NCBI GenBank assembly: GCA_011388305.1
Contig: DSAF01000158.1
Location: 2,212 to 66,211, forward strand
DNA length: 64,000 nt
Reading direction: 5' to 3'
DNA from: Candidatus Zixiibacteriota bacterium
GTDB lineage: Bacteria > UBP14 > UBA6098
Below are positions 3,921-56,544 of this stretch, piece by piece. The translations under genes were made by a program, and so were the position numbers. The notes beneath the pieces were generated by a model. That model saw only the letters and a program-made list of their open reading frames with translations. It made no database searches and was not told where the DNA came from. Every line of letters starts with the position of its first letter. The stretch's first letter is position 1.

Positions 3921-3975
3921 TGAATTATGTTTTCAATGAATTATAACGATAGTGTCAAGTCATGCAAAGAAAAAA

Positions 3976-4048
3976 TACCCCATGGAGGATTCGAACCTCC
4001 GACCCACTGATTAAGAGTCAGTTGCTCTGCCAGCTGAGCTAATGGGGC
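3976..4048 (-). tRNA. tRNA-Lys (anticodon CTT)
   Basis: The reverse complement folds as a cloverleaf: acceptor GCCCCAT, D-arm GCTC/AGCTGGCA/GAGC, anticodon stem ACTGA/TCAGT with loop CTCTTAA, and T-arm GGAGG-TTCGAAT-CCTCC. Pair 1-72 is G·U. CCA is not encoded. Confidence 0.85.
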
Positions 4049-4168
4049 ATTTCGCGGCCGGCCAATTCGGCCGATGTTCCGTCAATTTATTCCAAATGCA
4101 TTGGTATTTCAAGCTATTTGTGAAATTTTTTCGCCGGAAGCTCTCGCTTTTTTGCTCAATTTCGCCTC

Positions 4169-4304
4169 GCGCGGGGGCGTCGGCGCGCGTAAACGCGCCG
4201 CGAAGTAGTCGGAGCGCGATCCTGCACAACAAAGAAAGTCTTCCGCCCGACTACTTCGAGCCTGCCTGCGATTTGTAAATCGCAGGCAGGGCCGACGCCC
4301 CGCC
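4169..4304 (+). repeat. copy 1 of a ~135-nt GC-rich structured intergenic repeat (outer stem plus three hairpins)
   Basis: GGGGGCGTCGGC...GCCGACGCCCC outer inverted repeat enclosing three hairpins: GCGCG-TAAA-CGCGC, a 12-bp stem CGAAGTAGTCGG/CCGACTACTTCG with a 34-nt loop, and the palindrome CCTGCCTGCGATTT-GT-AAATCGCAGGCAGG. The same architecture recurs at 26711-26844 and 56386-56522. Confidence 0.8.
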
Positions 4305-11848: not shown

Positions 11849-11974
11849 TTCTATCTCCTCTATTGATTTATGATTTGTGATTGATGATTATAGATTGGAA
11901 GGCGAGCGACTTTGGGTCGAACCCCGCCTTTTACAATCTTCAATCTCCAATCATCAATCTGAAATCCAAGTGCT
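11849..11974 (-). promoter_or_regulatory. conserved 5' leader element, copy A (shared with the secD upstream region)
   Basis: Minus-strand sense reads TTGGATT-CAGATTG-GATTGGAGATTG ... AAAAGGCG-loop-CGCC ... AAATCATAAATCAA-SD-ATG. This is about 70% identical over ~125 nt to 14897-15017. Confidence 0.6.
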
Positions 11975-33420: not shown

Positions 33421-36400
33421 ATGCCTCAGCCAAAAAAAAGTCTTCGCTTTTCCCATATCGCACTCGCAATTCTCTCACTCTGCTCTATCGCAGTAGCCCA
33501 AACGGAAATCATCTTCGATGTCATTAGCGCCGGCGGAAACGAGCATTTCGGGGTCACATCATCGAGATACAAGCTGACATCGACAATCGGCCAGTCCACG
33601 CCGATTTCGGCGGAGCCGCTGACGGGAACATCGCACAGCATCTTCCCCGGCTATCGCAAAATTGACAGGGACTACTGGTATCCGTTCAGCTGGTTCACAA
33701 TCACCGTCCACTATGCCTCGGCGACATCGTTCGAGCTTACTTGGTCGGGGATGGACACCACATCACACGATGGCGAGGGCTGGGGAATCTGGAACTACGA
33801 CCTCCAGTATCGCACCGAGGGCGGCGCATGGACAGATTGGCACATGGCCACGGTCGAGACTTCGGCGACCTTCGGGCCGTCGGCGCCGGTTGTTGTCGAG
33901 GAGGGCGAGTCGTATTATTTCCGGCTCCGCGCGAGGGACAAGGTTCGCAATGTTGCGCCGTGGACGGAGGAGAGCGGCCACGACACGACGGTCATCACGG
34001 TGAACTACACAGTGGAGTTCTGCATTCACACGCCTGCTCCGGGGCTTTCGACGGATGCGTTCAACTTCGCGACAATCGAGTATTTCCCCGTCGCCGGCCT
34101 GCCCACGAGCGTCAACCTTTGGGAGGGCGAGTGCGTAGAGCTGTCCTGCGTTCCCGGCGAAAGGGCATCGATTTCGCGGACGACATCCGACTCCGACGGC
34201 GAGGAGCGCTGGGCGGTGTCCAACATCGATGACACTGCATTCGTCATCACCGGCTCGACCGATTACGACATACCATTTTGGCATCAAATTCGCCCGACTG
34301 TCCACCTTGTCGGGACGGACATAACGCACACCGTTTCGACACTTCAGCGCGAAGAATTCGGCTCGCCGCATCTTGAGTCCGGGCTATGGGAACTTTGGAC
34401 CGATTGGCTGGATTACGGCTCGACGCTCGAATTCTCCGAGTGGACTACCGGCTCTCCCGCGCGCAGAGCCGAAGCCGACGATTCTGTCCGCTTCCGCGAC
34501 ATTACTTCGTCATTCACCGATACGATTAACTACACCGCGGCCGGCAACATGGTGACAATCCAGACGAACTTCGGCGATTCGGTATATGTCGATGGCACGC
34601 GGTTCCCAAGCCCCCACCACACGAACTGGTTCATAGGCTCATCGCACGAAATAGCCGTCTGCAGGACGGTCCATATCTCTGACTGCGAGCGCTGGGTTTT
34701 CCAGCAATGGCACGATGGCTCGATAGACACGTCCCGCATGGTCACCATCGATTCCGATACGGTGTTCACCGCTATTTTCGAGCGGCAGTTGCGCGTGGAA
34801 ATCACGAACCCATCCGGCATTGGCTACCCCATCCCGGCGGTTGGCTCGTATTGGTTTGCTGAGGGCGATACGGTCGAGGGCCACATGGATGTCACGGGCG
34901 TTGTCGATTACATGCTCGTCGGTTGGCTCGGGACGGGGTCGGCGCTCTCCGGCGGAGGGGCGAGTTTTTGGTTCATCATTCACGACTGCTCGAGCATCGA
35001 GTGGCGATGGGTCCCCGCCAGCGACGATTTGTGCACGCTCCGCGTTTATAGCCGATACGGACATCCGCACCCCAGCGGCGTTTATGTCGTGCCGAGAGGG
35101 ACTTTGGTTTGGGCGAGCGTCGAGGACAGCACTTTCGAGGGCGGCGACTGGCATCATTGCACGGGCTGGCTCGGCGATGGCGATGTCGTGCCCGCAGAGG
35201 GCGACAGCAATATATTGAGTTTCACGATGACGGACAACGGCTGGCTCGTATGGCAGTGGGATGGCAATCTCGAACTGCCGTTAGTGGTCAGCAGTTCGCC
35301 ATCGATTCACGGCCCGCCGGTGCCGCCGGTGGGGACGCACTGGTATGAGATAGACTCGCCAATCTCCGCGTTCGTCGAGGAAAACCCCGACGAAGACTGG
35401 TTCTGCACCGGCTACATCGCATCGGGCGCACTGCCTACAACGAGTGCGGACAGCGTCCACTTCATCCTCTCCGCGCCCACGGAAATCGACTGGCAGTGGG
35501 TATATTACCCATCAGGGCCGCTGGATACCGTTTGGATTTTCAGCAGATTCGGCGACCCTCTTCCCACGCGCGGCATGCACAGATACCCGCGCGGCACGGT
35601 CGTCACCGCGGTGGTCACGCCGTTCGACGGCCCGAACTATTGCTCCGGCTGGTCGGGCACGGGCAGTGTTCCGGGGTTGGGCACGGGGACTTCGGTGAGC
35701 TTCACGCTGGATGCTTTCAGCACGCTCACATGGAATTGGAACGACGAGCTACTTGTGCCGCTTGTGGTGATAAACCCCGGCGGATACGGCAATCCCACGC
35801 CGAACGAGGGCGTCCATTGGTATGAGATGTTCACGGAGGTTAGCGCATCCGTGACAAGCCCCTATTCCGGCTGGTTCTGCGTCGGGTATAACGGCTTCGG
35901 GAGCGTGCCGGGGTTCGGATATCCGCCATATTGCCACTTCACCATTGCCGTGGCCTCGGGCATCGAGTGGCTCTGGGCAGACGAGGCTTATATCCTCCGC
36001 GTAACCGCGCCGGCTTACAGCGATCCTGTTCCGCCGGCGGGGATAACATATCACCCGCCCGGGCGTCATATCGTTGCGACCAATGTCGATACCCTATGGG
36101 AGCACGACGCTTTCCGCTACGTTTGCAAAGGCTGGACGGGCGACGGCACCGTCGTGCCGATTGCCGGCACGACGAGCATGGCAGATTTCACGATGACAGC
36201 TAATGCTACTCTTGAATGGCTCTATCAAACCCAGTTCTACCTCGAACTTGACTATTATGGCCTGCCGGAGGGCATCGAGCCGGATGTCCTCGACTTCGAG
36301 GGCTGGTTCGCCCGCAATGATACGGTCGTTCTCGTCACCGACTCGGTGGTTATGGACGGCGATGATCCCTATGTCTTCCTCCGCTGGGATGATTCGGGCA

Positions 36401-37782
36401 TCGGCGCACCAATCGATAACATATTCAGCGACTCAACATTCATCGTTATCGACAGTTCATACACCATTCTCGCGGAATTCCGCGAGGCGGTTTGGGTCGA
36501 GATAATCAAAAGCCCGCCGGGCAATGACCTCGGCTGGATTAGGATAAACACCGATACTACTTATGGCGAGGCTTTCGCCGGATATCTCGTCCGCGATTTC
36601 GAATACACAGTTCAAGTCTCGCCCTATGACGCAAACTCCGATGTGATGTTCAATTTCCTGCACTGGCGCGTGGATTCACTTGCCGCGTCCCAAAGAACAT
36701 TCACCCCCCTCTCGGACACCGTGCTCTATGCCGACTATCAGAGGTTCTGGCATATCATCATCGAGAAGCATCCGCCGGACAATCACCTCGGCAAGCTCGA
36801 GGTTGACGAAATCACTTATGCCGGCGCGGCTTCCGTCCGACAGTCTTTTTGGTGGGAGGACGGGAGCATTCACCGCTTCAATGTGACAGCGAGAGATTCT
36901 ACCCCGACTATCAGATACGATTTCAATCGCTGGAACGACGGCTCGACTTCTGTCAGCAGAATTTATGGTCCGGTCACCGGCCCGGATTCACTGGCCGCTC
37001 TTTACAATAAGACCGTCCTCTGCCGCGTCGAGAAGGTGCCGTCGCAACCATACGGCGCCATCGAGATTACGGGAACGCGTTATTACGGTGTCGGCGCGGT
37101 GGATTTCTGGCATCCATGGGGCGATGCGGTCGTTTTGGCCGTGAGCAAGTATGACGCCCACGACGATTCGGTCTATATATTCTCGCATTGGGATATCCCG
37201 GGAGAGCCTACGGATAGCGCATGGACTTGGCTCGATGTGAGAGAGCCACAGACGTTCAGAGCTATATACAACGGCTCCAAAATCAACATATATTTCGAGA
37301 TTGGACAGCATGGCGTCATGCCGCGTGACAGCATTTACTGGCTTATCCCCGATTCGCTGGATTTCGGCGAGGAGAGGGTAATGCCGATTCAGGATTCTAT
37401 TAGGATAGTGAGCCTCTCGAACGTCCCAATCGACTTTTCGCTGGGCATCGACCGAATAAAGGACTTGAACACCGGCACGCTTGATCCTCATTGGACGCCG
37501 GCATATTTCGCGGGCGTCGGCAGATTTGCGCTTCATGCACAATTCACGGATCTGTCCACGCCGCCGGTGACATGGGCGAGGATCCACGATTACGTTAAGG
37601 ATACGCCGTTCTGGGCGTCATCGATAATTTTCGGACCGGGGGGACATTACATTCAGCCCGAGGGATATCCGAACAGCTCGACAATGCTGTGGTTCAAATT
37701 CACAGCGCCGCTCGCATCCGAAAACTCGACGCACCAGCGGGCGATATGCCTCAAGCTTTCGGCAAGGATGTATTTACCATAA
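33421..37782 (+). CDS. giant secreted protein (1453 aa) with an FN3-like N-terminal region and more than ten tandem InlB-B-repeat-like (Listeria-Bacteroides repeat-like) modules
   Basis: Signal peptide, then repeated ~70-aa modules with the pattern P-x-P-x-G-x-(H/Y)-W-Y/F...C-x-G-W-x-G-x-G...F-T-M...W-x-W. Examples: YGHPHPSGVYVVPRGT...CTGWLGDGDVVP...LSFTMTDNGWLVWQW and FGDPLPTRGMHRYPRGT...CSGWSGTGSVPG...VSFTLDAFSTLTWNW. Confidence 0.75.
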   Translation: MPQPKKSLRFSHIALAILSLCSIAVAQTEIIFDVISAGGNEHFGVTSSRYKLTSTIGQSTPISAEPLTGTSHSIFPGYRKIDRDYWYPFSWFTITVHYASATSFELTWSGMDTTSHDGEGWGIWNYDLQYRTEGGAWTDWHMATVETSATFGPSAPVVVEEGESYYFRLRARDKVRNVAPWTEESGHDTTVITVNYTVEFCIHTPAPGLSTDAFNFATIEYFPVAGLPTSVNLWEGECVELSCVPGERASISRTTSDSDGEERWAVSNIDDTAFVITGSTDYDIPFWHQIRPTVHLVGTDITHTVSTLQREEFGSPHLESGLWELWTDWLDYGSTLEFSEWTTGSPARRAEADDSVRFRDITSSFTDTINYTAAGNMVTIQTNFGDSVYVDGTRFPSPHHTNWFIGSSHEIAVCRTVHISDCERWVFQQWHDGSIDTSRMVTIDSDTVFTAIFERQLRVEITNPSGIGYPIPAVGSYWFAEGDTVEGHMDVTGVVDYMLVGWLGTGSALSGGGASFWFIIHDCSSIEWRWVPASDDLCTLRVYSRYGHPHPSGVYVVPRGTLVWASVEDSTFEGGDWHHCTGWLGDGDVVPAEGDSNILSFTMTDNGWLVWQWDGNLELPLVVSSSPSIHGPPVPPVGTHWYEIDSPISAFVEENPDEDWFCTGYIASGALPTTSADSVHFILSAPTEIDWQWVYYPSGPLDTVWIFSRFGDPLPTRGMHRYPRGTVVTAVVTPFDGPNYCSGWSGTGSVPGLGTGTSVSFTLDAFSTLTWNWNDELLVPLVVINPGGYGNPTPNEGVHWYEMFTEVSASVTSPYSGWFCVGYNGFGSVPGFGYPPYCHFTIAVASGIEWLWADEAYILRVTAPAYSDPVPPAGITYHPPGRHIVATNVDTLWEHDAFRYVCKGWTGDGTVVPIAGTTSMADFTMTANATLEWLYQTQFYLELDYYGLPEGIEPDVLDFEGWFARNDTVVLVTDSVVMDGDDPYVFLRWDDSGIGAPIDNIFSDSTFIVIDSSYTILAEFREAVWVEIIKSPPGNDLGWIRINTDTTYGEAFAGYLVRDFEYTVQVSPYDANSDVMFNFLHWRVDSLAASQRTFTPLSDTVLYADYQRFWHIIIEKHPPDNHLGKLEVDEITYAGAASVRQSFWWEDGSIHRFNVTARDSTPTIRYDFNRWNDGSTSVSRIYGPVTGPDSLAALYNKTVLCRVEKVPSQPYGAIEITGTRYYGVGAVDFWHPWGDAVVLAVSKYDAHDDSVYIFSHWDIPGEPTDSAWTWLDVREPQTFRAIYNGSKINIYFEIGQHGVMPRDSIYWLIPDSLDFGEERVMPIQDSIRIVSLSNVPIDFSLGIDRIKDLNTGTLDPHWTPAYFAGVGRFALHAQFTDLSTPPVTWARIHDYVKDTPFWASSIIFGPGGHYIQPEGYPNSSTMLWFKFTAPLASENSTHQRAICLKLSARMYLP

Positions 37783-37825: not shown

Positions 37826-40111
37826 ATGAAAAAGACAATTCTTCTTGCGCTCGTGATGATGTTAGCCGTGACGGCTCTCATGGCCGAGATTCCCCGCAAA
37901 ATTAACTATCAGGGGAAGCTGGCCGACGCAGACGGCATCGGCATCGAGGACGATGTGAATATGGTGTTCTCGCTTTTCGCCGGCCCGACGGGCGGGACGC
38001 CACTCTGGACGGAAACGCACAGCGGTGTTTCGGTGCAGAAGGGGCTTTTCGATGTCCTTTTAGGTTCGGTGACGGCGTTTCCCGAAGCGCTTCGCTTCGA
38101 CGCGCCATATTGGCTGGAGATTACCGTCGATGGCGACATAATGCGGCCGAGGGTTCAATTCTATTCTGTGCCATACGCTCTCTCGGCGGGCACCGCGACC
38201 TCGGTTTCATCGAGCGCCGCCGGAAGGGGACTCTCAGTCGATGCGGGAGACTCACTACATGTGAACGTCCGCGACGGCATCGAGATTTTCAACGACTCGC
38301 TTCAGATTAAGAACGCGGGCGTCTCCTGGCCAAAGCTCGACGAGGAGGTCAAGGACAGCATTCGATACGCTATCGGCGCGGGCGGTGTGAGCAGTCTCAA
38401 CACGCTCACCGGCGACTTGTCCATTGTAGGCGAGGGGGGCGTCTCGGTGAGCGCCGAGGGGTCGAACATTGTCGTAGATCTCACGCTCGCTCCGGGGGAT
38501 TGCCCGATGCTGATTGACCTCACAGAAGGCTCGACCGGCAATCAATATGTCCCGACGAACGTTCAGACTTTCACCCCGTCTATAGGCCAGTTTCTCATTC
38601 TCGGCGACGATATTGGTTGCACCGGCGGGCGCATGTATGGCGCGACTCTCATCGCCACATCGACATCCGGCACGATACCCGATGTAGATATCTGGTTCGA
38701 CAATGTCCTCTTGAGCGACCTCTCGGGCGGCTCGGTCTTCCCGTCGGGAACGCCGATTATCTCTGGCGCAACGCTGACAATCAACCCCGACAGCACCGTC
38801 GAGCTGACCTTCCCGCGAGGCTTTGTGTATGCCGGCAATAATCTGCTTGTCACCATGCGCAAAAACAGCACCGCCGGAATCTTCTCGGCATGGGTGGGCA
38901 AGCCTACGGCGACTGTCAACGCGCGATACACACCGGACGCTTCGAGCTTCCCGATGACGCACACGGCGAATTTCCGCCCGAATATCAAGCTCAATTTCCT
39001 CGCACCGGAGATTCCCGACATCGTAAACGATGTCAACGGCATCACCGGCTCGGTGAACATTATCGGCGGAACGGCAATCAATGTCGAAACGGCCGGCTCG
39101 GACATCACCATCAATTACACCGGCGAGTTCGAGGATGACGAAAACTGGAATTTCCGCGTCACCGACGGCGCGGACACAACGCTCATCACCAGAGGTCGCT
39201 GGGGACTCGCGCGCGGCGGCAACACTCTCCACGGCAACGCCGACTCGACTCACACGAATTGGGGCATCGCTTCGGTGACGGGAACATCCGGCTCGAATTA
39301 CAAGTATGCCACTGTAGGCGGCGGCGCAAACAATTTGGCCGGACATACTTGGACGACTGTCTCCGGAGGCTCGGAGAATCAGGCGCTCGGCCCTGGCGCG
39401 ACCGTTGGCGGAGGTTTTCTCAACACCGCGAGAGACTCGGCATCCGTCATCGGCGGCGGAAGCTGGAACGAAACCAGCGGCAAGTATTCAACTATCGCCG
39501 GCGGAAATAACAACACCGCATCAGGGCTTTGGTCAACTGTAGGCGGCGGATACAGCAACTCCGCAAGCGAAATGAACGCCACCGTCGCGGGAGGATTCCA
39601 GAATGCCGCGAGCGGGCTTTGGTCTGCAATCGTCGGAGGACACAATAACCAAGCCCAGTTCGACTATGCCGCTGTCGGCGGCGGAAGGAACAACATCGTC
39701 GCGGGCGAAAGGGCTGTCATCCCCGGCGGAAGCCTTCTGAAGGTCGGCTCACGGAGCTTCGGCTTCAGAGGAGGAATCGGCGGCAATCCCACTACACTGT
39801 CCGATGTCTCCGGCTCGCCCGAGACTTTCCATATCGTCGATGCGCATTTCCACCATAATTATAATAATTCCGCGGCTCATTTCCGCGTGGACGGAACGAC
39901 GGACTTCATGATTTACATGAATGCGACATCGAACCGCATAGGCTTCAACACGAACACGATGAGCCGAATGATAGACATCAACGGCACGGTGGGAATCAGC
40001 GACACATTAGACATGCGCCAAAACCAGACGATTAACATGGTGCTCGAAAACCGCACGGACAATCCGCCGAGTCCGGTTATCGGCCAGATTTGGATGCGCA
40101 TCGACCTTTAG
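37826..40111 (+). CDS. cell-surface / tail-fibre-like protein with N-terminal beta-sandwich repeats and a C-terminal Gly-rich 'GG' head-repeat region
   Basis: Signal peptide (MKKTILLALVMMLAVTALMA) and the N-terminal module KINYQGKLADADG...TPLWTETHSGVSVQKGLFDVLLGSV...YWLEITVDG. The C-terminal half is made of repeated ATVGGGxNNxASGxWSTVGGG units (YadA-head/Hep_Hag-like). Confidence 0.65.
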   Translation: MKKTILLALVMMLAVTALMAEIPRKINYQGKLADADGIGIEDDVNMVFSLFAGPTGGTPLWTETHSGVSVQKGLFDVLLGSVTAFPEALRFDAPYWLEITVDGDIMRPRVQFYSVPYALSAGTATSVSSSAAGRGLSVDAGDSLHVNVRDGIEIFNDSLQIKNAGVSWPKLDEEVKDSIRYAIGAGGVSSLNTLTGDLSIVGEGGVSVSAEGSNIVVDLTLAPGDCPMLIDLTEGSTGNQYVPTNVQTFTPSIGQFLILGDDIGCTGGRMYGATLIATSTSGTIPDVDIWFDNVLLSDLSGGSVFPSGTPIISGATLTINPDSTVELTFPRGFVYAGNNLLVTMRKNSTAGIFSAWVGKPTATVNARYTPDASSFPMTHTANFRPNIKLNFLAPEIPDIVNDVNGITGSVNIIGGTAINVETAGSDITINYTGEFEDDENWNFRVTDGADTTLITRGRWGLARGGNTLHGNADSTHTNWGIASVTGTSGSNYKYATVGGGANNLAGHTWTTVSGGSENQALGPGATVGGGFLNTARDSASVIGGGSWNETSGKYSTIAGGNNNTASGLWSTVGGGYSNSASEMNATVAGGFQNAASGLWSAIVGGHNNQAQFDYAAVGGGRNNIVAGERAVIPGGSLLKVGSRSFGFRGGIGGNPTTLSDVSGSPETFHIVDAHFHHNYNNSAAHFRVDGTTDFMIYMNATSNRIGFNTNTMSRMIDINGTVGISDTLDMRQNQTINMVLENRTDNPPSPVIGQIWMRIDL

Positions 40112-40224
40112 GAAATATTCGTGCCGGTTATCATTTCATCGGCAAAATTCCCGTTGAACTGGATGGGAAAATTGTTATATTGCATGAAAATTTGATACGC
40201 ACTATTATAAAAGTAAGGAGAGAG

Positions 40225-41172
40225 ATGAGGGGTATTATCTTAACACTGGCGCTTATCGCGGTTGCCGGGATGGCTATCAATACGACGCCGTATTTCCCGA
40301 TAGCGCTCGGACATGAGTGGGTCTATCAGGATTCATCGGAGGCCGGATATGACACATCGCGCGCCTTAGTCAGCGGGATGACCACGATTCACGGGCACGA
40401 GACCTTTATCGTCACGAAGAGGGGCGTCGAAGGCATCGATAGCTCGTTCTATCAGGTTCGCCCCGAGGGTTTCTACGAAATGTTCAATCTTTATGTGGAA
40501 ATGGCAGACATTTCAATCGAGAACTATCCGGTGCTGTTCATGAAGAACCCAGCCGAAATCGGCGAAAGATGGGCGGCTATGTCGATTGATACGAGCATGA
40601 TGGTTATGGGTTTTCCGGTCGATCTGACCATCGATGTCATAGCCGAGTTCGAGGGCTTCCACGATTTGATTCTCCCAATCGGCGACATGCGCGACTGCAT
40701 TAAAATAACTGCCCTCGCAGACTGGAAAATCGACGCGGGCGCACTCTTCGCAGACTCCGGTCAGGATCTCTACTCGATTTCATATTATGTCGAGAATGTC
40801 GGCCTCGTCAGCCAAACGGAGTTTGACATCATGGGCGCCATGATGGGCGGCTCGATGGACGCCACCACTTCCAAGCTCATCAGCTATGACTTCTCCTCCA
40901 TTGAGGAGCTTATCGATCGTCCGGAGGGCATGGAGCTTTCCGCCTTCCCGAACCCGTTCAACTCTGCGGTGACTATCCGCCTTCCGAGCGCCGATGTCCG
41001 GCGCGTGGAAATTTTCGACGTCACGGGCAGAGTCGTCGAGACGCTCGATGTCCCTTCCGGCGCAGGCTTCGTAGGATGGGAGCCTTCGCAGACGGCGCAA
41101 TCAGGCGTTTACTTCATCAAGGCTTTTGCCCCAGCCGCCGAGTTCTCTACACGCGCAGTCTATCTAAAATAG
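40225..41172 (+). CDS. hypothetical secreted protein with a T9SS C-terminal sorting domain
   Basis: SD AAGGAGAG before the ATG. Signal peptide present. C-terminus LSAFPNPFNSAVTIRLPS...GVYFIKA. Confidence 0.75.
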   Translation: MRGIILTLALIAVAGMAINTTPYFPIALGHEWVYQDSSEAGYDTSRALVSGMTTIHGHETFIVTKRGVEGIDSSFYQVRPEGFYEMFNLYVEMADISIENYPVLFMKNPAEIGERWAAMSIDTSMMVMGFPVDLTIDVIAEFEGFHDLILPIGDMRDCIKITALADWKIDAGALFADSGQDLYSISYYVENVGLVSQTEFDIMGAMMGGSMDATTSKLISYDFSSIEELIDRPEGMELSAFPNPFNSAVTIRLPSADVRRVEIFDVTGRVVETLDVPSGAGFVGWEPSQTAQSGVYFIKAFAPAAEFSTRAVYLK

Positions 41173-41186
41173 CGGCCAAGTTTTAA

Positions 41187-42410
41187 GTGAAAAAGCTGGT
41201 CACCATCGCGGTTCTCGCCGTTGTCGTCGCCACGACGATAGCGGCGAGAACCGGCGTTGTGGTTTGGGAGACTATCAACCTGCGCGAGGGGCCGGGCACC
41301 CGCTATCACCGTCTCGGGAATTTCGAAAAGGGCAAGTATTTCGCCATTCTCGGTCAAGAGGGCAACTGGGTCGAGGTCAACGCCAACGGCATTCACGGAT
41401 ATTTCTACAAAGACGGCATCAAAGAGGTCAAGACGCTCGGAACTTACATCGTTCGCGAGGATGAAGTCCTCTTTCGCTGGGGGCCGGGAGAGCGATTCGA
41501 TACGCTCGCCATCCGAGAAGGGGGGATTGCCATCGAGGTGGTATGGGAGCACGGACAATACCTTTTCGGCCAGTTCAACGGCTCGGGCGTGTGGTTCAAC
41601 CGCGATGCGGTAATCAAGATTCTCCCCTCGGACGACGAAGTTCCCGGGCTGGAGTCGCCGCTTGTGGATGACATCCCCGAACTTCCGGAAATTCCCGAAG
41701 TGGTCGTGCCAGCGGTTGAAAAGCCTCCGGTGCGAACCGAGCCAACGGTGCAGATTACTCGGAGAGTCCCGGAACCTCCCCCGAAAACGCCCTCCCGATG
41801 GCGCTGGGGCGCGATGGTCTCCGCCAATAACGCGTGGGTTCACAGCGAGGTTGCCGATCCTTTGCAGGACATCTCCATTCCCACTATCACTATCGGCGAG
41901 GACTATCGCCAGAGCTTGCTGGGCGGCCAGTTCCGCGCGCATGTGGGGTTTTCCCCGGGGAAAAAGCGCCGATGGGAAATCGCACTTCTTCCGTCCGTCG
42001 CGTGGACGCCCAAGAGCCACATCGTCAACATCCACGGCGAAAACCACACCGTGACAGACGAATATCTTCGCGCAGGCGGCGAGCTTGGCTTGGCGTTCAA
42101 ACCTCACCGCTCTTTTGCTTTGGGGATAGGCGGCGGGTGCACAATGATAGAGCACGAGATGCGCCTTTCCAGCCAAAACGGCACGAGCGAGCAAGTCTTG
42201 ATGGACGGCTCTTTCCTTGCTCCTATGGGGTTCTTCGAGTTTCGCATTGGCGCGGGAGCTTTGAAGACCGTCGCGGGCGCGAGCTGGACGCAATGGATTT
42301 CCGACAACACGCGCTTCTTCGTCGAGCGCGACGGCACGCCGATTCCCATCGGCGGGGATGTCAACAGAGAATCGTTCGAGGTATATATTGGCCTTATGCT
42401 TTCGAAATAG
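41187..42410 (+). CDS. SH3b-domain protein with a C-terminal beta-rich (possibly outer-membrane) region
   Basis: N-terminal SH3b motif (VNLREGPGTRYHRLGNFEKGKYFAILGQEGNWVEV), a Pro/Glu-rich linker and a ~200-aa beta-strand-rich C-terminus. Confidence 0.6.
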   Translation: MKKLVTIAVLAVVVATTIAARTGVVVWETINLREGPGTRYHRLGNFEKGKYFAILGQEGNWVEVNANGIHGYFYKDGIKEVKTLGTYIVREDEVLFRWGPGERFDTLAIREGGIAIEVVWEHGQYLFGQFNGSGVWFNRDAVIKILPSDDEVPGLESPLVDDIPELPEIPEVVVPAVEKPPVRTEPTVQITRRVPEPPPKTPSRWRWGAMVSANNAWVHSEVADPLQDISIPTITIGEDYRQSLLGGQFRAHVGFSPGKKRRWEIALLPSVAWTPKSHIVNIHGENHTVTDEYLRAGGELGLAFKPHRSFALGIGGGCTMIEHEMRLSSQNGTSEQVLMDGSFLAPMGFFEFRIGAGALKTVAGASWTQWISDNTRFFVERDGTPIPIGGDVNRESFEVYIGLMLSK

Positions 42411-44313
42411 CGCGCGCTGGGCGTTTCTTTTCGCCATTCTCGCCGCCGTTTCTTGCGGATGGGAGGAGAAAAGCCCCGTCTCGCAATATCCCGAGCTTCG
42501 ATGGGGGGTGAGCTTCCACGCCGAAAGTGGCATCATCGAGGCGGAGTTCTGCAATATTCTCGTGCGCGGCGACTTCTCCCGCGACAACATCTCCGCCGAA
42601 CCGGCAGATTTCGCGGTAATTCTCACGCCGGATACCAATTACTATTTCTACTCGCCCAAGCAGGGGAATCTCGAGAATTTGAGCCTACGATTGAGCATAG
42701 ACGCGCTGATTCTGCTCCTTCGCGACCAAGGCTACTTCGGCGAAGCGCACCGGCGGCCGGATTTTTACGCGTCGCAGTTCGTCGGCATAGACATCTCCGG
42801 CGATCAGGATGCGCCCGAAAAGCTTTTCGAGAACAGGCTGAACCGATTCGCCGGCATCGTCTCCGGCGGCTCGATGAAGATTTTGCCGTCGCCTTCGGGC
42901 GGAACTTCGCTCGTTGCGCCTTTTCTCTTCGACGAGATGGGCGCGATAGTGCAGAACGACGGGCACACGGCGATGTTGCCCTGCAGGATTTCGCCGCCGC
43001 CGGACACGGCATATCTATACAACGCGAACTCGCTGGCCATGCTTCTCGAGCCGCTTTCAGCGTCCTACATCGAGGAATTCGGGGAGCTGTTTTACGAGGG
43101 TATTTCCGTTTCGCCGCCGCTGGTAGCGCGTCTCTCTATCGCCGACCAGATGGGCATTCTCGCGCTGGTTATCGATGCTTTCTCATCCGAGGCGACCGGC
43201 GATGAGAACGTCGATTCAGCCGAAGTGCGGCTTACCAGCAGAATCGAGCCTTTGGCCGAAGATTTCGACCTCTCGCTCCGTAATACATTGAGCTATCGGG
43301 AGATTTCCGCCCTCTTTCGCGAGATTATCACAGCCGATATCCTCGAACGCCTCATCGATTCCCCCGCCGAGACAACGGTTATCTCCTTTACCGCTAATGC
43401 ACTGCGGCACATATTGTTAGGCGTAGATTCGCTGGTCGGTGCCGTGGAGACATACGCGCGTCCGCCGTTCGCGAAATGGGCTGGAAGAATCCCCAGTGTC
43501 AATATCGAAGCGCCGATTTCCGGCGAGACCTATTCGCGCTCCGAGGAGGTCGAGTTCATCGGCTCTGCGACAGACCCAGAAGACGGCGCTATCCCCGGCA
43601 ATATGCTGAACTGGCGCTCATCCCGCGATGGCGACTTGGGCATCGGCGCGACGATTCGCCGAAGAATCTCCTCCGGCGACCACGAGATAATCCTCTCTGC
43701 GGAGAACTCAAACGGCTTTGTAGCTGAGGACACGGTGCACATCACAGTTGATTTGGGCAGGCCGCCTTATGTTCGAATTCTCTCGCCCGAGAGCAACTCC
43801 GAGTTTCAGAACACACTGCTGGTGGCCTTCCTCGGCCATGCCGAGGATTTCGAGGACGGCCTCCTCACCGGCGAATCGCTGGAGTGGACGTCCTCGATTG
43901 ATGGATTCTTGGGCTATGGAACTTCAATCGAGCGCGAGCTGTCCGTCGGCACACATACAATCACATTCACCGCCACTGACAGCGACGGGCTTTCCTCCTC
44001 GGACGAAATCACAATCGAGGTCATCCTCAACACGCCGCCGGATGTCTGGATTATCTTGCCACGCGACGGGGACACGCTGTCGATGATAGGCCTGAACATC
44101 TTCATCGGCGGCGCAACCGACGCTGAAGACCTCGTCATTCCGGCGGACAACCTCGTCTGGACATCGAGCCGCTCCGGCGAAATTGGCAGAGGGTTCTTCT
44201 TCCAGCTAATGTTCATGATGCCCGGCAGGCACGAGATTGTTCTCACTGCGACGGACTCCGGCGGCCTCTCCGCCGCGGACACTATCGAGGTTTTCGTCAG
44301 TTTCAGCGATTGA
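42358..44313 (+). CDS. lipoprotein with three C-terminal tandem Ig-like (~90 aa) repeats
   Basis: Lipobox LAAVSC. The C-terminal repeats follow the pattern P-x-V-x-I...G...V-x-F-x-G-x-A-x-D-x-EDG...L-x-W-x-SS-x-DG-x-LG...G-x-H-x-I. The start is uncertain: the ORF-track ATG overlaps the upstream gene by 53 nt, and a downstream TTG is possible. Confidence 0.6.
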   Translation: MSTENRSRYILALCFRNSARWAFLFAILAAVSCGWEEKSPVSQYPELRWGVSFHAESGIIEAEFCNILVRGDFSRDNISAEPADFAVILTPDTNYYFYSPKQGNLENLSLRLSIDALILLLRDQGYFGEAHRRPDFYASQFVGIDISGDQDAPEKLFENRLNRFAGIVSGGSMKILPSPSGGTSLVAPFLFDEMGAIVQNDGHTAMLPCRISPPPDTAYLYNANSLAMLLEPLSASYIEEFGELFYEGISVSPPLVARLSIADQMGILALVIDAFSSEATGDENVDSAEVRLTSRIEPLAEDFDLSLRNTLSYREISALFREIITADILERLIDSPAETTVISFTANALRHILLGVDSLVGAVETYARPPFAKWAGRIPSVNIEAPISGETYSRSEEVEFIGSATDPEDGAIPGNMLNWRSSRDGDLGIGATIRRRISSGDHEIILSAENSNGFVAEDTVHITVDLGRPPYVRILSPESNSEFQNTLLVAFLGHAEDFEDGLLTGESLEWTSSIDGFLGYGTSIERELSVGTHTITFTATDSDGLSSSDEITIEVILNTPPDVWIILPRDGDTLSMIGLNIFIGGATDAEDLVIPADNLVWTSSRSGEIGRGFFFQLMFMMPGRHEIVLTATDSGGLSAADTIEVFVSFSD

Positions 44314-52634: not shown

Positions 52635-52700
52635 ATTTTCTCCGGAAAAATAAAAATCTTAACTGTCATCACTGGCGAGCCACCGTCTCGCCCCTACGGG

Positions 52701-52785
52701 TTGTCATTGCGAGACCTGAAAGGTCGAAGCAATCTTGAATGAATTGAGGAGATTGCTTCGTCGCTGTTCTCCTCGCAATGACAAA
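52701..52785 (-). ncRNA. Y-shaped nested hairpin in the porY-porX intergenic region (candidate attenuator/processing site/small RNA)
   Basis: Outer stem TTGTCATTGCGAG/CTCGCAATGACAA (13 bp) encloses GACC-tgaaa-GGTC and GAAGCAATCT-(14 nt)-AGATTGCTTC. Confidence 0.4.
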
Positions 52786-52816
52786 CACTACCTATCACCC
52801 ATAACCCAATACCCTA

Positions 52817-55363: not shown

Positions 55364-55364
55364 A

Positions 55365-55474
55365 GTTGGGTTTTGGGTTATGGGTTTTGGGTTTTGGGTT
55401 TTGGGTTATGGGTGATTGGGAAAAGGCTAAGGGTTAAAGGTTAAGGGTTAAGGGTAAATGGGTCATGGGTTTGG
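55365..55474 (+). repeat. telomere-like G-rich minisatellite: (GGGTTTT/GGGTTAT)x7 followed by (GGGTTAA)-type units; 14 G3 tracts in 110 nt
   Basis: Direct reading gives GGGTTTTGGGTTATGGGTTTTGGGTTTTGGGTTTTGGGTTATGGGTGATTGGG...AAGGGTTAAAGGGTTAAGGGTTAAGGGTAAATGGGTCATGGG. It fills the whole interval between the stop of the 55475-56305 gene and the serS ATG. Confidence 0.85.
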
Positions 55475-56305: not shown

Positions 56306-56385
56306 CTTTCCTCCGAAAAAATGACATCACTATATGATAGGCCGAAGTCCTGCCTATGTCAAACAGCTAATTTCGCTTTCAGCCC

Positions 56386-56522
56386 GCAGGGGGGCGTCGG
56401 CGGCCGTGAACGGCCAGCGAAGTAGTCGGGGCAGAATCGTCGCTTTGTGCAAAAAATCTCCCCCGACTACTTCGCTCTCACCTGCGATTTGTTAAATCGC
56501 AGGTGAGGCCGACGCCCCCCCC
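56386..56522 (+). repeat. copy 3 of the structured intergenic repeat
   Basis: GGGGGGCGTCGGC / GGCCG-TGAA-CGGCC / GCGAAGTAGTCGGGG...CCCCGACTACTTCGC / CTCACCTGCGATTT-GTT-AAATCGCAGGTGAG / GCCGACGCCCCCC. Stems are kept by compensatory substitutions relative to copy 1. Confidence 0.8.
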
Positions 56523-56544
56523 GTTTGCACGCGCGAAAATCGAA

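Follow-up and report, generated by a model that had tools for sequence, protein, structure and literature searches.

An interspersed, pairing-preserving palindromic repeat with a predicted four-way junction in candidate division Zixibacteria

The repeat and its copies in the window

The window, the whole 64-kb stretch of DNA analysed here, contains three copies of a palindromic repeat. The third has the stop codon of a sigma-54 response-regulator gene on one side and the next gene's promoter on the other. The original prediction had put copy 3 at 56386-56522, and these bounds bracket the true core at 56389-56520. The core consists of an outer stem that closes three arms (A, B and C), with the long central stem in arm B. 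The parts of copy 3, the adjoining gene and the other two copies are as follows.

56389..56520, plus strand: core of copy 3, predicted four-way junction with arm order A-B-C; covariance model score 153.8 bits
56389..56401, plus strand: 5' arm of the outer stem, GGGGGGCGTCGGC; partner at 56508-56520, 13 nt, 100% complementary
56402..56415, plus strand: arm A, 5-bp hairpin GGCCG-TGAA-CGGCC
56416..56476, plus strand: arm B, 16-bp stem AGCGAAGTAGTCGGGG / CCCCGACTACTTCGCT enclosing a 29-nt variable loop
56477..56507, plus strand: arm C, 14-bp hairpin CTCACCTGCGATTT-GTT-AAATCGCAGGTGAG
56508..56520, plus strand: 3' arm of the outer stem, GCCGACGCCCCCC
56363..56388, plus strand: left flank, placed within the inserted block by the empty-site comparison and by a flank motif seen across copies; holds TAATTTCGC, half of a weak terminal inverted repeat
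56521..56544, plus strand: right flank, within the inserted block; holds GCGAAAATCG and extends up to the response-regulator gene's stop codon
56545-57894, minus strand: sigma-54 response-regulator gene
4173..4302, plus strand: copy 1, oriented as copy 3, between a tRNA-Lys gene (3975-4049, minus strand) and a plus-strand gene; 140.5 bits
26714..26844, minus strand: copy 2, inverted, with arm C first on the plus strand; upstream of feoA/feoB; 153.9 bits on the minus strand

All three copies fold on either strand as a four-way junction with practically no unpaired bases at the junction. Their minimum free energies lie between -88 and -109 kcal/mol, with z-scores of -7.7 to -14.4 (both strands). 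The copy 3 region gives -100.9 kcal/mol (z = -13.9) on the plus strand and -109 kcal/mol (z = -14.4) on the minus strand, and on each strand none of 200 shuffles folded as well. The outer stem of the window copies is GGGGGCGTCGGC/GCCGACGCCCC, arm B is GCGAAGTAGTCGG ... CCGACTACTTCGC enclosing a loop of about 30 nt, and arm C is a hairpin of 13-14 bp, CTGCGATTT-nnn-AAATCGCAG. Copy 2 is the reverse complement of copies 1 and 3; because the outer and central stems are palindromic, its inversion appears as two side hairpins trading places. A covariance model of the family (see below), run with filters off over the whole window, detected no copies beyond these three.

The case for a structural constraint was first made from copies 1 and 3, and re-examination leaves it largely intact. 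The short hairpin does change from GCGCG-TAAA-CGCGC in copy 1 to GGCCG-TGAA-CGGCC in copy 3 (56402-56415), and the long central stem of arm B gains GG/CC in copy 3 (TCGGGG...CCCCGA), both as described. At the base of the same stem, a G.A mismatch in copy 1 is replaced by a proper pair. The description of the arm C palindrome (56477-56507) needs one correction: CTCAC/GTGAG is right for the outer arms of copy 3, with three compensated pairs, but the 5-mers given for copy 1 were one base out of register and should read CCTGC/GCAGG. Pairing is kept by every change from copy 1 to copy 3, all of them being complementary, just as had been claimed.

Compensatory variation across the family

Metagenome contigs were scanned with a pattern derived from the central stem, which gave 45 loci, 37 of them with full copies. 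OMKS01 contigs supply nearly all of the metagenome copies, and Ga0209614 adds a few identical loci. Removal of duplicates left 41 distinct full copies, namely the three in the window and 38 from metagenome contigs (mostly OMKS01). The sequence surveyed from element-bearing or related genomes comes to about 680 kb, a fraction of each genome, with crude gene calls in the loci; the density in the window is 3 copies per 64 kb, and a second genome carries at least 38. Neither partial copies nor solo arms were found in these ~680 kb of loci. The other eight of the 45 loci (L011, L015, L022, L030, L032, L034, L035 and L047) are unrelated, the seed having matched by chance. Most of the eight (L034 being the one not so listed) are long perfect fold-back palindromes, several of them at contig ends, and are probably artefacts of assembly or amplification. 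A scan of a genome collection with the outer and central stems combined returned six matches, and the three inspected (L002, L004 and L005) proved to be chance matches inside coding sequence. Among viral contigs, plasmids and phages there was no match to the repeat.

RNAalifold recovers the same four-way structure from the 41-copy alignment, with double-sided changes at 14 pairs. Of the 1802 stem cells in the 41 copies, 98.7% are paired, compared to a mean of 93.3% in shuffles (none of 500 reached the observed value) and to 35-48% in a control in which the pairing partners were slid. Both sides have changed at 16 pairs and in 97 cells, versus 7.2 pairs and 23 cells in the shuffles, and again none of 500 shuffles reached the observed figures. 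The remaining mismatches comprise 5 G.T, about 13 of other kinds and 10 A.C, the last confined to a single pair near the junction. In arm B, none of the 41 copies varies in the 11-nt core GAAGTAGTCGG, in its partner CCGACTACTTC or in one additional pair; this is by construction, since the core was the scan pattern. The 41 copies are mutually related, so that the shuffle controls overstate their independence. We argue that the covariation signal is nevertheless real, given the outcome of the slid controls and the large number of private compensations that are independent of one another. The family is thus pairing-constrained, as the original prediction held: instead of mostly non-compensatory changes, the 38 further copies show stem variation that is almost all compensated on both sides.

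A good number of the compensated changes are transversions (GC to CG, TA to AT), for which no wobble intermediate is possible. In arm A, nine copies other than copy 3 carry GCGCG/CGCGC where copy 3 has GGCCG/CGGCC (GC to CG at columns 33/53 and 34/52 in 9 copies). The four outer pairs of arm C are hypervariable (columns 121-124 with 146-149), with four pair types at 123/147, and arm C occurs in twelve stem haplotypes across the family. Private compensations are found in the outer stem (L027, with G to T matched by C to A; L043; L036), in the central stem (L019, L031) and in arm C (L024). Larger replacements also leave the structure in place, with arm A swapped for a longer hairpin in L008 and L009 and the core of arm C replaced in L049. 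Between copies, identity averages 91% in paired columns, 54% in unpaired columns and 55% in the central loop. Unpaired parts that have diverged to about 54% identity argue that the copies are old, and yet the stems are still paired.

Several features bear on the level at which pairing is constrained. The covariance model also matches the opposite strand of the element, at 60-72 bits, and the five G.T cells, which would be G.U in RNA, are not favoured over the 10 A.C and about 13 other mismatches. Element orientation is unrelated to the direction of the flanking genes. The near-absence of G.U, the equal folding of the two strands and the lack of orientation bias indicate a DNA-level rather than an RNA-level constraint, and we therefore favour a constraint that acts on DNA, not RNA. 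Aligned flanks contain no consistent promoter or terminator. An intrinsic terminator was considered and rejected, because on both strands a T-run precedes the structure and an A-run follows it, with no U-run after it. In an Rfam search over the whole window only tRNA-Lys reaches the gathering threshold, and in a permissive search of the element the best score was 25 bits against a 100-bit threshold (a microRNA model).

The 3-nt loops of arm C also flip between orientations. In 28 of 36 copies the loop has its reverse complement among the other copies, which involves 12 of 18 loop types (GAT/ATC, GGA/TCC, GTC/GAC, GGC/GCC, TAT/ATA and GTA/TAC), and this flip/flop occurs even within one stem haplotype. 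Its significance is only moderate: nulls matched for composition give P of about 0.003-0.03. When replication switches template from one arm of an inverted repeat to the other, the arms are homogenised and the spacer is inverted, and template switching is known to preserve inverted repeats in bacteria (PMC8604942, PMC5941160). Loop inversion combined with arm homogenisation is the published signature of this process, so the flip/flop fits template switching. One caveat should be attached to the word "constrained", which need not mean selected: template switching could produce compensation of the Watson-Crick type only, with no help from selection.

Insertion sites and divergent variants

Comparison with two relatives provides direct information on the arrival of copy 3. 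The seryl-tRNA synthetase (SerRS) encoded in the window is 100% identical to a protein that NCBI assigns to a candidate division Zixibacteria MAG. The spacer at this site is 239 nt in the window, as opposed to 69 nt in DIWU01 (L055/L056; SerRS 81% identical) and 25 nt in CAZSHG01 (L061; SerRS 70% identical). The C-terminus of the response regulator can be aligned in both relatives, and the downstream promoter (TTGACA-N17-TATCxT), which adjoins the extra block, can be aligned in DIWU01. The absence of copy 3 from the orthologous site in both relatives argues that it is an insertion of ~180 nt. The extra block runs from 56363 to 56544 (182 nt), so that the full copy 3 unit is longer than its core and the mobile unit would add about 25 nt to either end of the 130-nt core. 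No target-site duplication was seen at the one empty site compared, where the junctions are blurred by about 20% flank divergence. Upstream of feoA, at the copy 2 site, synteny is not conserved in the relative compared. Window positions 55364-55474 and other spacers are 100-180 nt longer than in DIWU01 (L052 versus L055) even where they hold no repeat copy.

The full unit of about 180 nt carries weak, A/T-rich terminal inverted repeats, GATTTTCGC ... GCGAAAATC, located 10-20 nt beyond the outer stem. When this motif was considered as an independent small repeat, a strict search found few pairs outside the elements. The outer stem itself is 11-13 bp long, and many copies extend it with covarying GCTCG/CGAGC or GCGCC/GGCGC. 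The 130-nt core is rich in G+C, and the stem of arm B within it measures 13-16 bp. The sequence GGAAGGTGCGAAGTAG resembles the IS5 terminal repeat. It is internal to the element and occurs in one stem haplotype only, so the resemblance was taken to be a coincidence.

All 41 copies of the main variant are intergenic, and by the crude gene calls the neighbouring genes are divergent in 15 cases, tandem in 16 and convergent in 6. Neighbouring genes carry type IX secretion C-terminal domains. No transposase or other partner gene was found: a tblastn over 680 kb with RAYT and IS200 TnpA sequences had a best E-value of 1.6, though this is a weak test that covers a fraction of the genomes. A parent insertion sequence was sought as well, and no ORF flanked by the element's ends was found in the ~680 kb of loci. 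In the two main-variant genomes the copies are 84-89% identical to each other, and two relatives from the same clade hold no copies, or only a divergent variant, in 43-53 kb. The repeat could therefore have spread horizontally or very unevenly.

A covariance model built from the 41-copy alignment, which represents the main variant (V1), matches three divergent variants.

L055:3843-3990: V2, 39 bits
L044:1200-1345: V3, 70 bits; its genome also carries many V1 copies
L064:4205-4392: V4, 56 bits, within the gene L064:3323-4480

V2, V3 and V4 all fold as four-way junctions, with z-scores of -9.5 to -11.2. They share with V1 the outer-stem core GCGTCG/CGAC(G)CC, the order of the arms and their approximate sizes, and the sequences of the arms are unrelated. 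Only the outer-stem core, and perhaps part of the central loop, is conserved across all variants. The proposed pairing constraint extends to these variants as well, in that whole arms have been replaced and the four-way architecture has been kept.

The gene that contains V4 codes for a 385-aa protein, and V4 lies in frame in the part for its type IX secretion C-terminal domain (Pfam Por_Secre_tail, E = 2e-6). The conserved motif IFDISGKLV is encoded by the central loop of V4, which aligns with the coding DNA of a paralogous neighbour. The domain that hosts V4 is only about 21 nt longer than that of the neighbouring paralogue, which has no stems. An in-frame location with no gain of element length is not accounted for by a simple insertion model; V4 seems to have arisen or been remodelled within coding sequence with no net insertion of element length. 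A derivation of the main family from the coding DNA of such secretion domains was also considered and rejected: scored with a position weight matrix of 16 coding segments, the 41 loops were not above shuffles (mean z = 0.43).

A second locus bears on the age of the element. The V1 copy at L021:8662-8792 and V2 (L055) both lie directly 3' of orthologous radical-SAM genes, with flanking proteins that are 65-85% identical. A third genome of the same clade has a 405-nt spacer 3' of the radical-SAM gene, with degenerate inverted repeats that include GATTTCGCT/AGCGAAATC; the degenerate, element-like structure is at L065:10180-10331. In more distant relatives the spacer 3' of this gene is short or missing, and the element is absent. 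The pattern hints at an element that has long persisted at the radical-SAM locus; independent insertions into a hotspot are the alternative.

Origin and maintenance of the repeat

The repeat is multi-copy, its copies are complete and preserve their pairing, and it is inserted relative to two relatives. This previously undescribed repeat is most likely a small palindrome that acts as DNA and is mobile or corrects itself, and not an RNA gene. We lean towards the view that copy 3 belongs to a lineage-specific family of interspersed DNA palindromes in candidate division Zixibacteria, non-autonomous and MITE- or REPIN-like, whose arms are kept by folding and template switching. Such an element would be mobile but non-autonomous and would spread the way MITEs or REPINs do. 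A putative enzyme would recognise it as folded single-stranded or cruciform DNA, most likely at the outer-stem core GCGTCG/CGAC(G)CC and possibly also at a portion of the central loop. The arms would be held exactly complementary by the need to fold together with template switching during replication, which would copy one arm onto the other and now and then invert a loop. Any effect on adjacent transcripts, through a very stable RNA structure in their UTRs, would be secondary. Several results count against a mobile element. No target-site duplication and no partner gene were found in the material described above, V4 is in frame, and the spread is uneven. In addition, there are no decayed or partial copies, which is not what a selfish MITE family usually shows; this suggests active maintenance of every copy, whether through host selection or through self-correction.

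The principal alternative is an RNA element in 5' or 3' UTRs that is under host selection and whose stable four-way structure would shield mRNA from exonucleases or insulate transcription units. Protection of mRNA and insulation of transcription units have been proposed for REP/BIME and ERIC sequences. An RNA of this kind would account for stems held in every copy despite loop divergence, for folding energies of -88 to -109 kcal/mol, for an architecture that survives in the divergent variants, and for copies that lie between genes, often just past a stop codon or just upstream of a promoter. We nonetheless consider it somewhat unlikely. The indifference to G.U pairing and the lack of orientation bias speak against it, as does the loop flip/flop, which is a DNA-level signature; the six convergent and fifteen divergent contexts provide no single transcript context, and no U-run follows the structure on either strand. 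A multi-copy family of small-RNA genes, each producing its own structured transcript of about 130 nt, is less likely and indeed highly improbable. Such a family would fit the strong covariation and the compact multi-helix fold, but the element matches no Rfam family, has no consistent upstream promoter or downstream terminator, leaves G.U pairs unused, and folds equally on both strands, with the model matching the opposite strand at 60-72 bits. Its junctions are also perfectly stacked, with no conserved unpaired nucleotides.

The repeat might also be purely a by-product of mutation, with template switching keeping the arms of any long quasi-palindrome identical, with no function and no dedicated enzyme, and with spread by rare recombination. 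The mechanism is published and known to preserve bacterial inverted repeats (PMC5941160, PMC8604942), and it would explain compensation that is Watson-Crick only and includes transversions, loops that invert, and a V4 that seemingly arose or was remodelled in coding sequence. What it leaves unexplained is the arrival of at least 41 complete copies at unrelated intergenic sites, the conservation of outer-stem core, arm order and arm lengths across variants with unrelated arms, and a block that is cleanly missing from orthologous sites; on these grounds it too ranks below the UTR element and is quite unlikely. Arms A and C look like classic palindromic operators (GGCCGTnnACGGCC; CTGCGATTTnnnAAATCGCAG) and many copies lie near promoters, so one might think of clustered duplex operators for dimeric DNA-binding proteins, in which the hairpins never form. 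An operator conserves sequence, however, and here the arms change freely while their halves stay complementary, and whole arms are replaced in the variants, which makes this less likely suggestion very improbable.

One further reading treats the four-way junction as a functional nucleic-acid device. A cloverleaf of folded DNA (or RNA) would be read by a putative junction-specific protein through its shape and its outer-stem core, and would stay at fixed loci as its arms turn over. The occurrence of V1, V2 and a degenerate relative 3' of an orthologous radical-SAM gene is evidence for such persistence, and such a device might even run in frame through the coding sequence of a secretion-signal domain, as in V4. 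This seems unlikely; if true, the junction would represent a new class of structure-defined genomic element and not a variant of MITEs or REPs.

The repeat was compared with known systems. MITE families normally hold decayed copies, and their internal pairing is imperfect. Our repeat resembles MITEs (e.g. Correia elements, ERIC, Nezha) in being 130-180 bp long, non-coding and multi-copy with strong predicted secondary structure, in having terminal inverted repeats, and in its intergenic location, in either orientation, with presence or absence between related genomes (239 versus 69 and 25 nt). It differs in that no target-site duplication was seen (one empty site) and no parent insertion sequence is known to share its ends. 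Moreover, the 41 copies have 98.7% of their stem cells paired, and they fold into a branched structure instead of a single long hairpin. Rickettsia palindromic elements (RPEs) can sit in frame in protein-coding genes and add a peptide segment. V4, in frame in its type IX secretion C-terminal domain, recalls them; however, the host domain of V4 is barely longer than the paralogue, and all 41 main-variant copies are intergenic.

REPs and REPINs are likewise short, G+C-rich, extragenic, multi-copy palindromic DNA (Bertels & Rainey 2011, PMC3116915). In a REPIN, an inverted doublet, the ends are conserved and the hairpin spacer varies; compensatory changes across the hairpin are common, and an alternative "clover" fold of REPINs with such changes in the hairpin has been proposed as a transposase substrate (PMC3116915). 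Arm B has a comparable plan, with an invariant 13-mer that includes GTAG, a variable spacer of ~30 nt (55% identity) and the inverted 13-mer. A REP, however, is an imperfect palindrome of 20-40 nt with GT[A/G]G at its 5' foot, whereas the 13-mer GCGAAGTAGTCGG is not self-complementary, pairs only with its distant inverted copy, and has its GTAG within a stem, where a REP has it at a hairpin's foot. Unlike a REPIN, the element also has two more hairpins, unrelated to each other, and an outer stem that makes the whole a closed four-way junction. REPs are mobilised by RAYT (Y1 HUH) transposases, whose gene lies in the same genome and typically has REPs on either side; no RAYT gene was found here (680 kb), and there are no REP singlets or ordered clusters. 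REPINs and MITEs are thus the closest described elements, and their defining features either fail here or are not demonstrable: there is no REP unit, and neither a RAYT, nor a target-site duplication, nor a parent insertion sequence was found. For this reason the repeat is not filed as either.

Other systems are more distant. Quasi-palindrome correction (the Ripley model; PMC5941160, PMC8604942) predicts both signatures observed here, Watson-Crick-homogenised arms, with multi-nucleotide changes and transversions among the corrections, and loop inversion; it is a mutational mechanism, however, and not an element, and leaves dispersal, four-way architecture and outer-stem core unexplained. PATEs derived from IS200/IS605 have subterminal hairpins, lack terminal inverted repeats and insert 3' of a fixed tetra- or pentanucleotide, whereas our element is closed by an inverted-repeat outer stem, has unrelated arms A and C, and shows no fixed upstream tetranucleotide in the aligned flanks. 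The attC site of integrons forms one imperfect hairpin, carries R''-L''/L'-R' boxes and extrahelical bases, and lies at cassette boundaries next to intI; in contrast, this element is a branched four-way structure with perfect stems, and its copies are scattered among housekeeping genes.

Most of what is known of interspersed palindromic repeats comes from Proteobacteria and a small number of other cultured groups, and their movement and role are debated. A family from an uncultured phylum provides an unusually clean natural data set, with 41 old copies, paired stems and drifting loops, four hypervariable base pairs, loop inversions, and variants whose arms are wholly replaced. Such a data set can distinguish selection for folding from self-correction by template switching, and the short conserved outer-stem core is a candidate recognition site for a putative enzyme. 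On a practical level, repeats of this sort interrupt assemblies, give rise to spurious ORFs and can change how neighbouring genes are expressed; the neighbours here include feoAB and a sigma-54 two-component operon.

Other repeats in the window are distinct from this family. Positions 52688-52797 contain an unrelated nested hairpin, TTGTCATTGCGAG ... CTCGCAATGACAA, with a 12-bp inner stem (GAAGCAATCT.../...AGATTGCTTC) and z = -4.9; its CATTGCGAG/CTCGCAATG motif resembles a repeat of many environmental genomes. An A/T-rich imperfect inverted repeat (26-nt arms, 85% complementary) surrounds a G+C hairpin at 11872-11966, in the spacer between two minus-strand genes (z = -5.0), and may be a terminator or another type of repeat. 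Within the 1453-aa ORF at 33421-37782, a 40-nt segment occurs three times (34972-35977) at a spacing of 477-489 nt, probably reflecting tandem protein domains. Finally, a near-perfect 21-nt palindrome (90% complementary, 3-nt spacer) is found at 41209-41253, where the ORFs 40090-41172 (plus strand) and 41160-42638 (minus strand) meet.
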